Origin: Eledone cirrhosa
Lineage: Eukaryota
Length of the DNA: 64,000 bases
Direction: 5' to 3'
Assembly: GCA_964016885.1 (NCBI GenBank)
Contig: OZ024764.1
Coordinates: 9,300,001 to 9,364,000, forward strand
The position numbers and the translations under genes were made by a program. The notes under the pieces are model-generated. The model was not told where the DNA came from. It made no database searches and saw only the letters and a list, made by a program, of their open reading frames with translations. Positions 15,529 to 63,362 of the stretch are shown here, one piece after another (the first letter of the stretch is position 1; each line of letters starts with the position of its first letter).

Positions 15529-15564
15529 TCTTAACGTTTTGGACGCTAGTCCTTCATCAGAAGA
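15529..15564 (-). ncRNA. Minimal hammerhead ribozyme, family A, degenerate (GAAA changed to AAAA)
   Basis: TCTT-CTGATGA-aGGACtagcGTCC-AAAACGTT-AAGA, within a repeat at about 15440-15660. Confidence 0.55.
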
Positions 15565-16505
15565 ATGAGAAATAAGATAGATTGAGGGGACGGGCCGGTT
15601 GCAATTAGAAAAAAATGTCTTTAGATAAAAATAACAGGTCCATTCATGTTGACATCCCCATACACACACACATATATATACCAGAGCTTAGCCGTCAGGG
15701 TCCTGAAACTTTTCATATATATATATAATAGAGTTTCTATTTTTGGCACAAGGCCACCGATTACCCCAGTGCACCACTGGTACTTGATTTTATCGACCTC
15801 GTAAGGATGAAAGGCAAAGTTAACCTCGGCGGGATTTGAACTCAGAACGCAAAGGGGCATAACTATGCTGCAAAACAGTGTCTGACGCTCTACCGATAGT
15901 GACAAATCACTGCCCTATATATATATAATAGGTTCGAGGAAGGAACGAGGGAGCACCCCCTCTCTGTGCTCCCAAGGAGAAGGGTTGCACACTTTTTTCG
16001 GGGGTGTGTGCGACCCCCCAAGGCGCCTCCTCTCTATTGAGGATTTTGTTATAATTTTATTTTTTGTTATATTTGATTTTATTTTTATATATTGTTATTG
16101 CCTCCTCCCTATTGAGGACGCCTTGTTTTGTAAACTCCCCCCATTGTACTTGTCCCACTTTTGATGCCCTGGTGGCAAATAAAAGAAACATATATATAAT
16201 AGGTTCCAGCGCATTAGCCTCGCCATCACCCGAGGTAACACTGCCAGTGTACTGGCTTGCCCAAAAAATCAGTACCCCTCGTTGCTGTCTTTTACTCTGG
16301 TGTTGGCTCGGTTGTTCACCCCTTCCTTTATATTTTCTTTAATATTGCAACATTAAAGGAATATATCCTTCTGAAAAAATCGCGAGTAATTTATAATTGT
16401 TTCTACTTTTAGCACAAGGCCAGCAATTATCCCAGTGCATTACTGGTACTTTATTTTATCGACCCCCGTAAGGATGAAAGATAAAGTTAACCTCGGCGGG
16501 ATTTA

Positions 16506-18225
16506 CCCCAGGCATGTCCAAATCTCACAGAAAATGTCGTCTGGTTGAAATACCGATATGTTATTTATTTAAATATATTTTGTGAAAATATACCCAGATT
16601 TAGTATATATATAAATATATATATACATACGTATACATACATATATATGTATGTATACATACACACGCACACATATATATATATATATATTATATATATA
16701 TATATGCATGTATACATACATTCATATATGTATACATGTATATATATTTGTAAAAACTGTGAAATTTATGTGTGGTAAACTTATATGGTTTGTATAAGAG
16801 AAGCCCTATAGTTTATGATGATTACTGATAAGTGATATATATATATATATATATAGATTGTTATAGAAATAGTGGACACCTTCCGTTACCTGGGTGACAA
16901 AATCAGCAGTGGGGGAGGGTGCTCTGAAAGTACAGTAGCTAGAGTCAGAACTGGATGGAAAAAGTTCAGAGAGCTTATACCACTATTGGCCGCTAAAGGG
17001 TTCTCTCTAAAAATGAAAGGCAGGTTGTATGATGCCTGCATACGAACAGCAATGTTGCATGGCAGTGAGACCTGGGCATTGTGTGCAGAGGATATACGCA
17101 GACTGGAGAGGAACGAAGCTTGCATGCTCCGCTGGATGTGTAATAGTAATATACGTGAATGGCAAAGCATAAATGAACTGAGAAATTAGGAATAAGAGGG
17201 ATCAGATGTTGTTTACTCGAGAGAAGACTACGTTGGTATGGTCAGGTGATGCGCATGAAAGACGACAGCTGTATAAAAAAGTGCAGGGCGATCAAAATAG
17301 ACGGTAGCTACGGAGTAGGCAGACCCAGAAAAACCTGGGACGACTTGGTAAATTCCGACCTCACACACTTACATCTCTCCAAGACAATGTCACTGGACCG
17401 AGATCTTTGGCGCTACACAGTCATACAGAAGACCCGCTTTGCCTAAATACAAAGCGAAACCTACAGTCAGTAGGCACCTCTAACAAAATAAACCCCCCCC
17501 CCCGTTCCAATACCCCCACCCCATTAAATGTGAAGTTATGTTGGTACCACAACATCCAGTCCGAAACAAATGAGGCCGTGTAGGTGTCACGACAAAAAAA
17601 AAACACACAGTCCTCGCTGTAATGTGGCCGTGTAGGTAACACGGTAAAAACCTCCCAATCCACACTGTAAACGTGGTTGGTGTTAGGAAGGGCATCCAGC
17701 CGTAGAAAATCCGCCAGACAGTCCTATGCGAGCAGGACAACCAATCTTGCCTCAAGTGGGAAAACTCCCGTCGAAACCCATGCGTGGAATATGGACGTTA
17801 AATGATGATGATTGTTAGTATATATACATATATATACTAACAAAATTAAATTAAAGATGTCATGTCTGAGAATATCAGAAACATGCGCCATAGAAATATA
17901 TATATATAACGAAGGAATTGTGGTAAGGAACCAGATGGACCACAACGCACAAGAGTACTCTATACTTAGGGTAGTAGAGTGGGTTTTCCTATTATATATA
18001 TATATATATATTCGGTGACTTGCGTATACATACATACAAATATATATATATATAAATTTTATTTACTGTTGTATAAAAGGAAATATAATAACACAATGCT
18101 TACAGAACGAAAGCACAAATAAATATACTAAATCTGGGTACATTTTCACAAAATATATTTAAATAAATAACATATCGGTATTTCAACCAGACGACATTTA
18201 CTGAGATATTTGGACACGCCTAGGG
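16506..18225. mobile_element. Non-autonomous TIR DNA transposon (piggyBac-like, TTAA end) with a nested RTE
   Basis: About 105-bp inverted repeats at 16506-16610 and 18123-18225, starting CCC. TTAA at 18226-18229 and TTTA at 16502-16505. Confidence 0.7.
16857..17812 (+). mobile_element. 5'-truncated RTE LINE family A (ORF2 C-terminus, 3'UTR, GAT tail)
   Basis: FRYLGD...GWKKFRELIPLL...AMLHGSETW...RLRWYG...GRPRKTW, frameshifted near 17185. Confidence 0.92.
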
Positions 18226-18490
18226 TTAAACGACAATGACAACAACGCTATATAAATATATATATATATACACAAGTAATTTGCTCACATGTATCTATAA
18301 ATGTTTCTCTGGAGATAAATTATACTCCAGTATTCCACAACCAAGCATTCGGCAAAAAGGTTTCTTTACAGTAAGACGACCAACAACTTGGTAATGGCGG
18401 TACTACAGAGTTATCTCCCTTGCTTGTTTTATGTATTAAATAAATGGTCCCTTGCATTTCATTGATGTAATAAACAACATAAGATAATTA

Positions 18491-18553
18491 TTTCATTTAC
18501 CAGTGGTGTCTTGTAGGCAGATATTTATATTTGTCTTCAGTCGTCAGAATGAA
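18491..18553 (-). ncRNA. Hammerhead ribozyme, family D, degenerate (GAAA changed to GACA)
   Basis: TTCATT-CTGACGA-stem II-GAC-ACCACTGGT-A-AATGAA; homologous to 33133-33192. Confidence 0.55.
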
Positions 18554-60947: not shown

Positions 60948-61012
60948 TATTTTATCTGATGAAAGCACACCATAATTTAACTTGGTGTCCTTGAAATATG
61001 TATAATAAAATA
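60948..61012 (+). ncRNA. Type I hammerhead ribozyme, family B
   Basis: TATTTTAT-CTGATGA-AAGcACACCA/TGGTGTcCTT-GAA-ATATGTAT-A-ATAAAATA, preceded by a palindrome at 60841-60907. Confidence 0.72.
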
Positions 61013-61353
61013 AATATGGTTTTATAAATCTAGTTTCCATTTGTCAATATCATATATATATATATATATATATATATATATAGGAAAATGTATGACCCCG
61101 AAGGCAGAGCTCAAGCCGTTTCGACGGCTATTTCTGGACTGAAATAGCCGTCCAGAAATAGCCGTCGAAACGGCTTGAGCTCTGCTGTCGGGGTTAAATA
61201 TTTTCCGATTACCCACTCTACTACCCTAAGTATTGAGTACTCTGGTGCGTTATGGTCCATCTGGTTCCTTACCACACTTCCTTCGTTTTATATATATATA
61301 TATATATATATATATATATATATATATATATATATATATATATATATATATAT

Positions 61354-61568
61354 ATTAGAAATATAAGCTTTCACTGTATTTTTGACTAAAGACATTTTTT
61401 AGCCTGATAGTGGGGTTTAGAACCCTCAGAGAAATGGAAAAAGATGAGTATTGACTCCCATATACGTCAATACTCATCTTTTTCCATTTCTCTGAGGGTT
61501 CTAAACCCCACTATCAGGCTAAAAAAAATTCTTTAGTAAAAAATACGGTGAAAGCTTATATTTCTAAT
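61354..61568. repeat. Fold-back palindrome, about 100-bp arms, family K
   Basis: ATTAGAAATATAAGCTTTCAC...GAGTATTGAC / GTCAATACTC...GTGAAAGCTTATATTTCTAAT. Confidence 0.85.
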
Positions 61569-63313
61569 TTCAAACTCACTCACTGTTTCAAAACATACTT
61601 ACATATATATATGCAAATGTTATATTTAATTTGTTGGGATACAACAAGCTGAAAAATATTTTTATAACTGATATAAAGCACTCAACAATTAATTAATTTG
61701 GTTCTCAATGTTTATCATCGACTGACCAAAAATGGCGTAGATATACAATACAACAGGAGGAACATAATAGTACCACTGATGATGTTGCAGATGTGCAACA
61801 AAAGAACTTTGTTAGACTATATATATGTGTTTATATCTATATTATATCTGTATTTTTGACCGTTGGTCAGTCAATGATAAACATTGAGGACCAAATTAAT
61901 TAACTGTGGAGATATAAAAGATACAGAAGCGAAAACCAACGAAACAGTGAGTGTGTTCTGTTGTTATTTCTGGCAATATTATTACAACAATATGACCCTC
62001 CCTAAGTATAACAATTTATATATATATATATAAATGGAGGCACATGGCTTAGTGGCTAGAGCATTGGGCTTGCAATCGAAAGGTTGTTAGTTCAATTCTC
62101 AGACCGAGTGATGTGTTGTTTCCTTGAGCAAGACACTTTATTTCACATTGCTCCAGTTTACTCAGCTGTAGAAATGAGATGATAGGGACTGGGGTCCCTA
62201 TCATTCCACTGCAAAGTGGTCGTGTAGGTGCCACGGCAAAAAAGCACCCAGCACTCACTGTAAATGAGGTTGGTGTTAGGAAGGGCATCCAGCTGTAGAA
62301 ATCAAGCCAGGGAAAAGTGGACGTGAAATGATGATGATGATGAAAATAGAGAAATTAATGTGAGCAAGAAGCCAACAGTATTTCATAATATATAAGTGAC
62401 TATAACGTCAAAATGGAAAATAATTAACGTAAGATGTGGGAAAATAATTCAAACTCAATTCAAAAAAATCAAGACATAGATTTATCCATAGAATTTTGTG
62501 AAATCCAGGGAAAAATCAATAGAGCCTCAACTCTGAATAAAATAAAGTTTAAATACTCATCCTTATATATATACATATATATTTCCCTTCACAGCTCTGT
62601 ATACACACATACACACCCTTATATTAACATACTTTTGTTCATACCTGCGTACAGATGTCTGATGAGATTTTAATTAAAGAATCAGGTCCGATTGATAGAG
62701 ATAGAAACATGAGCTGATCAATTGCGAAACATGAGTCACACCTGAATAAACTTAACGAAGACTTGACACCTCATCTTTACTTATTATTAATCACGCCATG
62801 CTTTCCAGCACAGTTACGTCCCTTTATGATCTGAGTTCAAATCTCGCCGAGTTTGACTTTGCCTTTCATCCTTACAGGGTCAATAAAATAAAGTACCAGT
62901 AATGTACTGGGGAATTTGCTGGCCTTGTGCTTAAAGTAGAAACAATTATTAATCATGGCGGTGGATTAGCAGTATCGGTAGAGAGTCGGACACCATGCTT
63001 TGACATAGAGTTACGGCCCTTTACGGTCTGAGTTCAAATCCCGCCGAGGCTGACTTTGCCTTTCATCCTTACGGGGTCGATAAAATAAAGTACCAGTAAT
63101 ACACTGGGATAATTGCTGACCTTGTGCCAAAAGTAGAAACCATTATTAATGATATATATATATATATATATATATATATATAAGTTATTCTGGGTTGAAT
63201 CAGAGGTAACCACAGTAAGTAAGGTACTCAATACATAGCAGAGTATAAAAGTTTTAATATAGAAGAGCTTCTACAGGACTAGAACTGTTTCATTCGTGAG
63301 AAATCACCAGGAA

Positions 63314-63362
63314 GCTTCCTGATGATTTCTCACGAATGAAACAGTTCTAGTCCTGTAGAAGC
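63314..63362 (+). ncRNA. Type I hammerhead ribozyme, family H, forming one arm of palindrome 63267-63362
   Basis: GCTTC-CTGATGA-tTTCtcacGAAt-GAA-ACAGttctagtcCTGT-A-GAAGC; GUA triplet. The mirror arm has CTGGTGA. Confidence 0.75.

Follow-up and report, generated by a model that had tools for sequence, protein, structure and literature searches.

What has filled this stretch of Eledone cirrhosa DNA with hammerhead ribozyme cores, and how did they come to lie against (TA)n tracts? An initial annotation of the 64,000-nt region analyzed here (the window) had listed about 18 cores, sorted them into sequence-unrelated families and attributed them to truncated Penelope-like elements (PLEs) or retrozyme-like units.

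Hammerhead cores of the window

A CTGANGA-type core or near variant was present at all 18 listed positions. When the 64,000-nt window was scanned with a type I descriptor (stem I of at least 4 bp, stem II of at least 2 bp, a stem III and an NUH triplet), 12 of the 18 formed a complete type I hammerhead fold, with C3 at 20247, 31469, 32375, 33140, 34352, 43309, 45190, 60516, 60956 and 63319 on the plus strand and at 43186 and 32291 on the minus strand. Comparison with shuffled sequence, a check proposed in the annotation, favored genuine motifs: the expected number of passes was 0.025 (mean of 40 local dinucleotide shuffles; maximum, 1), and the reversed window gave none with the same descriptor. 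The cuts predicted from the sequence after 31523, 33185 and 63357 are the same whether taken from the annotation or from the descriptor. Five of the six failing cores are decayed or weak (AAAA in place of GAAA at 15560 and 61776, GACA at 18547, a broken stem I at 30991 and a stem I of only 2 bp at 36171, in family G), and the sixth, at 53612, has the sequence CAGAAGA (U4A), which is common to family I. The most frequent copy of families A, B, C, D, E and H passes the descriptor, that of I is U4A, and that of G has the 2-bp stem I. Arms at 63310, 53575 and 37742, all on the minus strand, had been absent from the list. The elements are as follows.

15430..15656, minus strand: end of a family A element (PLE of Neptune/Nematis type), with C3 at 15560 and G12 decayed to A
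18465..18685, minus strand: diverged D-like element; hammerhead arm on minus, C3 18547, GACA for GAAA; tail arm on plus (18585-18657 aligned)
20111..20349, plus strand: family B; inverted tail arm 20111-20183, then a sense arm whose hammerhead is intact (C3 20247, cut predicted after 20296)
30845..31104, plus strand: family A end; C3 30991, stem I broken in this copy
31288..31574, plus strand: family C; tail arm short and inverted; sense arm starting at -169, with C3 at 31469 and a cut predicted after 31523
32089..32512, unstranded: family E inverted pair; site-2 arm (minus) C3 32291, site-1 arm (plus) C3 32375; extended stem II of 63 nt
32978..33223, plus strand: family D; inverted arm that includes the tail (32978-33110), and a sense arm with C3 at 33140 and a cut predicted after 33185
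34230..34458, plus strand: family C; tail arm 34230-34282, inverted; sense arm starting at the -69 breakpoint, with C3 at 34352 and a cut predicted after 34406
35925..36278, minus strand: family G, Neptune/Nematis-type; arm with C3 36171, 2-bp stem I; inverted arm 36197-36278
37674..37888, minus strand: family I copy, new relative to the earlier list; C3 37742, GATA for GAAA
43002..43411, unstranded: family B inverted pair; C3 43186 (minus, site-2 arm) and 43309 (plus, site-1 arm), both intact
44979..45360, plus strand: family F; tail arm 44979-45137, inverted; sense arm with C3 at 45190, a cut predicted after 45300 and a stem II domain of 85-92 nt
53418..53681, unstranded: inverted pair of family I with a U4A core on each strand (53612 plus, 53575 minus), within a class C GPCR intron
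56501..56671, unstranded: family H inverted pair, without a complete core because the junction lies inside stem II
60474..60646, plus strand: end of a family A element, with C3 at 60516 and a cut predicted after 60543; lies in the GPCR intron in sense orientation
60727..61050, plus strand: family B; arm 60727-60844 inverted, sense arm with C3 at 60956 and a cut predicted after 61004
61728..62005, plus strand: end of a family G subfamily, with C3 at 61776 and A at the decayed G12; starts at the AAAATGGCG motif
63184..63372, unstranded: fold-back pair of family H with its junction at -6; C3 63319 (plus, predicted cut after 63357) and 63310 (minus, A6 changed)

A bare core is not diagnostic, because a 103-bp array at 13148-15246 (ARMT1) gives 20 CTGACGA...GAAA matches. 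We rejected this array as a hammerhead satellite; each unit is a copy of the start codon region of ARMT1 and has no UH site. That AT-rich repeats or MITE-like palindromes gave rise to the cores by chance, with no ribozyme meaning, has next to no probability: although bare cores arise accidentally, as in the array, although the hammerhead fold is not the minimum free energy fold of several monomers, and although an Rfam scan gave no hammerhead family among the best 150 of its 235 matches (only TA-repeat miRNA look-alikes), the 12 passes against 0.025 expected, 57 hammerheads against 2 in reversed controls, compensatory changes in families B and C and an architecture shared with published Hydra hammerheads (PMC8557442) all stand against it. 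As an account of the sequence pattern, it is refuted.

Covariation and stem III

Not all of the families are unrelated, as had been claimed: B and C align as one structure and so are related. In a set of 31 rows hand-picked from 124 distinct BLAST-collected copies of B and C, 96.5% of cells were paired, against 38-59% in slid controls, and 8 of 21 pairs had a two-sided change, a covariation score reached in 0 of 500 shuffles. The covariation sought across genomic copies is thus present in stem II (seven pairs) and stem III (one pair), with none in stem I. Family H alone gave 1 of 13 pairs (in stem I), a count that 490 of 500 shuffles also reached.

The annotation had likened the cores to minimal type I hammerheads with a palindromic stem III. 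Type and palindrome were borne out, but most are not minimal, stem III being 4 nt in family A only and an 8- to 9-nt palindrome in B to F; H and I are predicted to be able to close a 4- to 5-bp stem III as monomers. We predict that the hammerheads cut mainly as a dimer or with the help of protein, and that they process the donor transcript. A 2017 study in RNA Biology reportedly dealt with dimeric PLE hammerheads and may already include U4A and the long stem II.

Continuity with PLE open reading frames

As the annotation had stated, no PLE ORF lies within the window. Extension in the 5' direction, its suggested check, reached RT plus GIY-YIG ORFs elsewhere in the genome for eight of the nine families and indirectly for the ninth, H, which supports the proposed PLE origin. 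Direct pseudo-LTRs (pLTRs) flank the RT/EN ORF of family C (locus L091), whereas families B (L363), F (L366, an intact ORF of 736 aa), I (L376) and G (L364, 1217 aa) are each joined to an ORF; D is linked in L391, A in the frameshifted L383, E by a tail followed by the ORF start in L369 (an N-terminal link only) and H indirectly via L373, L439 and L390. G-like ORFs beside H in L396, L410 and L235 were judged to be neighboring insertions and rejected as the ORF of H. Short copies run varying distances 5' into the 3' UTRs and RT/GIY-YIG ORFs. Thus, of the two attributions made originally, truncated PLEs stood, and retrozyme-like units did not, there being no head-to-tail hammerhead array in the window.

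Families B, C, D, F, I, G and A each have a single ORF with an RT and, at its C terminus, a GIY-YIG domain. The motifs of the Hydra-type families are RW-, DKT, YRDD and CxCx5C: B, C and I have RWR, RWI or HWR together with DKT, F has DKT only (the copy is 5' truncated) and E has DKM. The ORFs of B, C, D, F and I carry the CxCx5C linker and terminal CxxC and CxH, with no CCHH; A and G carry a CX2-5CxxC linker and a CCHH in the endonuclease (G in L364/L365, A in L383). On these grounds, B, C, D, E, F and I carry Hydra-clade motifs, an assignment made by motif rather than by tree, and H is probably Hydra-type as well. A and G are of the Neptune/Nematis type, two clades that the motifs leave unseparated. 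The seven Hydra-type families are distinct (27-57% protein identity).

Searches of Pfam and PDB sequences with whole Hydra-type ORFs gave no match; the isolated C terminus of family F scored above the Pfam cutoff for GIY-YIG, and the predicted structure of F, built on a local alignment of 12 sequences (mean pLDDT, 50), matches RTs including TERT. A genome search with the Pfam GIY-YIG domain found CCHH-type elements, and in the first 650 nt downstream of them the only matches to the nine families were neighbors.

Two fixed ends in (TA)n

The hammerhead is located in the pLTR, and the "tail" 3' of it corresponds to the next unit's 5' UTR. On either side of this tail, each family has a fixed 3' end (sites 1 and 2) against (TA)n, a structure that the annotation had missed, as it had the Hydra clade; pLTRs in partial tandem, an inverted 5'-truncated copy and a tail at one end were all found. 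Among 208 incidental arms of B, C, I and H, 197 terminate at site 1 or 2, with TA adjoining 175 of these; of the 99 site-1 arms, 58 are paired with an inverted arm, which in 53 cases ends at site 2. By analogy, such site-1/site-2 inverted pairing is the signature of PLE internal initiation. The association with (TA)n noted at the outset holds: in unselected genome regions, 44 of 51 hammerheads have (TA)≥5 on the 3' side of the cut site, no more than 250 nt away, against 31% of random positions, although in 3 of the 18 listed cores the tract is missing within 250 nt or borderline (far from 30991 and 33140, at 220 nt from 18547). Junctions to the target have 1-4 nt of TA microhomology. MITEs (DNA transposons) were rejected, the arms being unequal, the end sites two and different and the junctions variable.

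It is therefore very probable that the elements are short, mostly 5'-truncated PLE ends in (TA)n that have kept the pLTR hammerhead; they likely arose when the RT-endonuclease of the element itself primed at two fixed internal sites. By analogy with the anole element PAc, the GIY-YIG domain would nick a TA tract on its two strands, with cDNA synthesis primed from each nick at one internal site. In the Hydra-type families, the start would probably be positioned by RCTC...GAG 6-9 nt downstream, together with the 1-4 nt of TA microhomology. Both cDNAs would usually halt after 50-300 nt and then be joined head to head. The hammerhead would be copied uncut and therefore be a passenger in short insertions.

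Putative start motif and fixed 5' breakpoints

In the Hydra-type families, RCTC...GAG lies 6-9 nt downstream of both start sites at 12 of 12 readable sites. The 5' breakpoints are also fixed, at -6 in H, -5 and -21 in I, -69 in C and -31 to -35 in E. G precedes the break in six of six incidental breaks of H, where long copies have C; this is less clear elsewhere (I, 3/5 at three loci; C, 1/3), and no general transcription-start hotspot was seen in B, D, F or A. Identical junctions recur, at -6 in 35 of 42 H copies and at -69 in 17 of 20 C copies, both in query-biased sets. Such junctions would also be expected from secondary copying of short masters, a counterpoint to primary initiation.

The fixed breakpoints may mark the start of transcription. 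Tentatively, and with rather less than even confidence, we suggest a joint reading in which the short elements are capped 5' leader cDNAs of PLE mRNAs: the duplicated RCTC...GAG would position two RTs, which would run off at the pLTR transcription start, and the products would join head to head in TA. If so, a leader with an uncut hammerhead would be the main PLE product, which would explain some 3-4 x 10^5 hammerheads, including the success of the U4A family. The accessible parts of the PLE literature contained no description of RCTC...GAG at PLE starts or of fixed 5' breakpoints as marks of transcription start.

Could the short forms instead be non-autonomous elements (PLE-derived SINE- or retrozyme-like masters), transcribed and recopied in trans by PLE protein? 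Many copies do share identical junctions (the H fold-back, and the C tail/-69 junction in most of L001-L030), but these sets were collected with junction-containing queries, and incidental copies share the template breakpoint but differ in partners. Putatively non-autonomous PLEs have been described (PMC8557442) and vertebrate retrozymes argued to be PLE derived (bioRxiv 10.64898/2026.07.22.740005), as far as the accessible text of these sources goes; against this, the same hammerhead subtypes occur on ORF-bearing copies (L111, L112, L116 and L122), short copies have no downstream start signals, and head-to-tail arrays were not seen in the window. We consider such masters unlikely. C1 as a separate non-autonomous subfamily was rejected, since ORF-bearing copies carry C1 hammerheads.

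Genome load and host context

Returning to truncated PLE ends, 370 kb of unselected DNA held 44-51 hammerheads, or one per 7-8 kb. We estimate ~2.5-5 x 10^5 hammerheads per genome, in at least 23 families; 36,013 first-look RT candidates and summed contig depths were excluded as copy-number estimates. In the accessible PLE and hammerhead literature we found no higher per-genome count, nor such a density or at least 23 families; two papers on octopus repeats make no mention of ribozymes, and the standard Rfam scan had no such hammerheads among its best 150 matches.

One 18.7-kb class C GPCR intron holds four sense cores in the window and two beyond it. Six sense cores in one intron might suggest that the host retains hammerheads as regulators of transcript stability or intron processing, but at one per 7-8 kb genome-wide this load is as expected, the copies are 95-100% identical to dispersed relatives, and window copies decay at core positions kept by the family majority (61800 and 60540 are minority letters, run X1); we regard host retention as very improbable. 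A long intron with six sense hammerheads implies that cleavage is low or that cutting of introns is tolerated, and the elements add many inverted repeats to transcripts.

Comparison with known systems

The comparisons below refer to the accessible parts of the cited sources. Hammerhead-bearing Hydra-clade PLEs in (TA)n have been published, including the octopus Hydra-1_Obim (Craig et al. 2021, PMC8557442). Our Hydra-type families share with them the C-terminal GIY-YIG without CCHH, the RW- and DKT motifs, the CxCx5C linker and terminal CxxC/CxH, (TA)n insertion, a type I hammerhead with N-stemII-N closure and an 8- to 9-nt palindromic stem III, and an inverted 5'-truncated copy and tail. They differ in number (seven families here, one octopus family there), in tails of ~75-140 nt rather than 30-40 nt, in stem II domains of up to ~100 nt, in the U4A core of family I, and in very high copy number and units of up to 4 kb (pLTR to pLTR, ~3.9 kb in C and ~4.0 kb in B), Hydra elements being typically <3 kb, a tendency only. 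The 16-nt hammerhead motif of Hydra-1_Obim was absent among 444 loci of the present genome.

Families A and G resemble Neptune/Nematis in the C-terminal GIY-YIG, CCHH and CX4CxxC linker (PMC8557442), although the 2-bp stem I of G is unusually weak. Family A is also like the minimal hammerheads of PLEs (Cervera and de la Pena 2014, PMC4209133) in the extra base after A9, the G-C closure and the 4-nt palindrome, and single dispersed motifs from truncated PLEs and opposite-strand pairs occur in both systems; there, ~2,000-9,000 are found per genome, whereas most families here lack G10.1-C11.1 and have a longer stem III. Non-LTR retrozymes of metazoans likewise have type I hammerheads in small, high-copy noncoding units, with 126,247 motifs in axolotl (PMC7229834; bioRxiv 10.64898/2026.07.22.740005), but they form head-to-tail arrays with a hammerhead per unit, whereas the elements here occur dispersed, inverted or singly and run on into coding PLEs.

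PAc, a Poseidon element of the green anole, has two RT starts and a hammerhead that is dispensable for insertion (Frangieh et al. 2024, PMC11167929). As here, two internal RT start sites flank the tail, targets are AT rich, and the hammerhead of the inserted copy is uncut; but PAc starts 111-118 nt inside the ORF, at an AC-rich stem-loop with no target homology, whereas here both sites are upstream of the ORF and fall at TA-like microhomologies, and RCTC...GAG follows each of them. The choice of internal start site, the cause of inverted ends and the role of the hammerhead are open PLE questions (PMC8557442, PMC11167929), and they can be tested in vitro or by genome statistics because this genome has seven related families of the Hydra type whose ends are precise to the base, which share a motif at a fixed distance from both starts and include copies with long open frames. 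Hammerheads in Hydra PLEs and their (TA)n targeting were thus known already, including an octopus family; the density, the putative start motif and the fixed breakpoints had no counterpart in the accessible parts of these sources.

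Hammerhead cores in the window

A type I descriptor found 12 complete hammerheads in the window, whereas 40 local shuffles averaged 0.025 and the reversed window had none. All 12 were among the 18 cores listed by the initial annotation; the other six did not stand as complete type I hammerheads:

53612, core with A for U at position 4 (U4A)
15560, 61776 and 18547, three decayed cores
30991, broken stem I
36171, from a family with a 2-bp stem I

The majority letters from run X1 give an intact core at 61800 and likewise an intact palindrome at 60540, showing that those window copies are decayed. 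Another repeated element, at 32795-32957 and around 51318 (minus strand) and also at another locus, L215, terminates in a half core (CTGATGA plus a family-A-like stem II start) hard against (TA)n.

The window is rich in (TA)n, and the repeat landscape suggests an octopus-like cephalopod. Cores at 15.5-45 kb lie between the divergent coding starts of ARMT1 and a class C GPCR. Those at 53612, 60516, 60956 and 63319 are inside a single GPCR intron and in its sense orientation, as are two more cores within 10 kb beyond the window. Genes and repeats were as follows:

2833-3846 and 12253-13236, minus strand: ARMT1 exons, the latter (first coding) with a 66-bp tandem Gly/Ala-rich insertion inside the domain
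5254-10620: 49-bp array, 109 copies, within an ARMT1 intron
11016-11572 and 55049-55871: inverted blocks of a 116-bp satellite, 44 kb apart
13148-15246: 20 tandem 103-bp units, each containing a splice-acceptor-like stretch and the region of the ARMT1 start codon (MSDETTPK); the last unit alone runs on into the ORF
20762-27566: 6.8-kb GT-rich 10-mer array
47778-50716: first ligand-binding exon of the GPCR, a 1001-codon open frame expanded by poly-Q, poly-N, poly-T and poly-D tracts; after an 18.7-kb intron the next part lies at ~69,460, beyond the window (locus L438, 5460 onward)
57787-57857, minus strand: Rfam tRNA match (37.3 bits, above the gathering score), probably a tRNA-derived SINE head

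The 20 CTGACGA...GAAA matches in the 103-bp array were rejected as false cores, since its units are the ARMT1 start codon region.

Helix covariation and folding

Families B and C have stem I in common, as well as the AUA site and a palindromic stem III of 8 nt. In an alignment of 31 rows, hand-picked from 124 distinct BLAST-collected copies to favor subfamily diversity, 96.5% of cells were paired (38-59% with slid partners) and 8 of 21 pairs showed two-sided changes; none of 500 shuffles reached the covariation score. Scores of this kind are inflated by relatedness. Family H had just one compensatory pair, which lies in stem I (27 of the 36 distinct copies). Predicted energies favored the dimer over the monomer in all eight families folded, and in H and I stem III was predicted to be closable by the monomer alone. 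These two families have the U10.1-U11.1 closure described as tolerated in part of PMC3088659.

The commonest form of family I is U4A (49 of 87 copies are identical), a form that we did not find in the literature searched. The core-variation section and matching passages of PMC3088659 mention U4C among core variants and do not include U4A; position 4 was C in 17 of 465 hits clustered from the collected loci. Stem II domains reach 60-105 nt in several families, which usual descriptors would miss.

Linkage to Penelope-like reading frames

Each family was searched against the genome once, and C twice, giving 40-75 matches per search, the top copies being mostly 94-100% identical. Copies reach 5' to differing extents. 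Extension joined eight families to Penelope-like (PLE) ORFs, E at the ORF start, and H indirectly, in agreement with the PLE origin proposed initially.

Reading frames linked to each family (pLTR, pseudo-LTR; loci are from the same genome)
A, L383: frameshifted RT-EN, 3' part common to L134 and L136-L138
B, L363: direct pLTRs flanking an RT-EN ORF, as for C
C, L091: direct 322-bp pLTRs flanking an RT-EN ORF
D, L391: ORF, then 1.9-kb UTR, then hammerhead
E, L369: hammerhead, then tail, then ORF start
F, L366: intact 736-aa ORF
G, L364: 1217-aa ORF between tandem pLTRs
H, L373, L390, L439: indirect; L373 ORF end 82% identical over 51 nt to the CxCx5C ORF end of L390, UTR shared with L439
I, L376, L375: ORF-bearing copies

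Families B, C, D, F and I carry RW-, DKT and CxCx5C and lack CCHH, the Hydra motifs given in part of PMC8557442 (Craig et al.); E has RWR and DKM. In G and A the linker is CX4CxxC and CCHH is present, so that by motif these two would be Neptune or Nematis. The F C-terminus scored above the Pfam GIY-YIG cut-off, and its predicted model resembled RTs, including TERT, at low confidence (mean pLDDT, 50). Taken together, the motifs are very probably real hammerheads at truncated PLE ends, mostly of Hydra type as judged by motif. Many family C copies have ~820-codon open frames, suggesting recent activity. RT fragments elsewhere in the window are of LINE type with a PHD finger, and do not belong to PLEs.

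Genome-wide load and further families

In 37 prechosen 10-kb regions (370 kb), the type I descriptor found 51 hammerheads, 44 once identical contexts were removed; with the two window flanks, counted separately, there were 57 in 390 kb versus 2 in reversed sequence. Bootstrapping the 44, with regions equally weighted, gave 2.5-4.8 x 10^5 hammerheads per genome (assembly size, 3.0 Gb). The window thus has a hammerhead density typical of its genome or somewhat above it. Portions of PMC4209133 cite ~2,000-9,000 minimal motifs, and portions of PMC7229834 cite >6,000 for a coral and 126,247 for axolotl. All collected loci, which are biased to the queries, gave 465 distinct hits. These formed 53 clusters, of which 23 had at least two members and some had stem II domains of about 100 nt.

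A G-related family (L021, L070, L404, L410, L417 and others) has a GTCA/TGAC stem I and an AGAACT or AGGACT stem III. It shares with G a AAAATGGCG motif ~55-65 nt upstream of the core, at which several short copies begin and which resembles a YY1 site. Another abundant family (L046, L410, L412, L436 and others), with no core in the window, has an ACTAGT stem III and stem I variants ACGATG, ACGGTG and ACGTTG with matching 3' changes. GIY-YIG elements of CCHH type whose 3' regions are long are also abundant (L061-L090). They may be Naiads or Neptunes, and the first 650 nt downstream of them contained none of the nine families' hammerheads.

Fixed 5' breakpoints

Relative to the core C (C3), 5' breakpoints with differing partners clustered at -6 in H, -5 and -21 in I, -69 in C and -30 to -35 in E (22 of 34 breaks), own-search copies being query biased. 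No pile-up was seen in B, D, F or A, and such fixed breakpoints were not found in the literature searched, including part of the Craig supplement. In all six incidental H breaks at -6 the preceding base was G, against C in long copies. RTs are known to copy the cap, and this G would fit a cap-templated base if the breakpoints mark a transcription start at which cDNA ran off. Drosophila Penelope transcription starts within the pLTR, according to passages of PMC2377424. The hotspots would follow just as well from microhomology at palindromes, stems or ATA triplets, and we therefore hold run-off at a transcription start to be a tentative reading, somewhat on the doubtful side.

Two fixed 3' ends at TA targets

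The tail, the sequence 3' of the hammerhead, is the next unit's 5' UTR and is flanked by two fixed 3' ends, sites 1 and 2.

Positions of sites 1 and 2 relative to C3
B: ~+95 and +187
C: ~+93 and +187
I: ~+66 and +158
H: ~+52 to +61 and +128

End pairs also occur in E, F, G and A, with offsets that take in some TA. Among incidental copies of B, C, I and H (own-search loci and hand-picked long regions excluded), 197 of 208 arms ended at one or other site, 175 of the 197 adjoining TA. An inverted partner accompanied 58 of 99 site-1 arms and ended at site 2 in 53. The initially noted (TA)n association also held in unselected regions, where TA lay within 250 nt downstream of 44 of 51 hammerheads, compared with 31% of random positions.

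Post hoc, and among related families, we found that RCTC (CCTC once) begins 6-9 nt past a modal TA junction at each of the 12 Hydra-type sites with read-through sequence (B1, B2, C1, C2, D1, E1, E2, F1, F2, H1, I1 and I2, named by family and site; D2 and H2, with no informative read-through, were left out). It is usually closed by GAG(T/C)(G/A)C ~10-20 nt later, is absent in G and A, and at C1 and H1 lies further from a second end. This motif was not found in the literature searched, including part of the Craig supplement. Copies that end at site 2 are without the second motif, and those that end at site 1 have neither, which leaves the pLTR-UTR junction in a tandem donor as the one possible template for both.

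The two ends and the site-1/site-2 inverted partners are like those of PAc, the Poseidon-clade PLE of the green anole, in which passages of Frangieh et al. (PMC11167929) trace the same genomic signature to two internal RT starts; in those passages, PAc hammerhead cleavage required protein and insertion was unaffected in hammerhead mutants.
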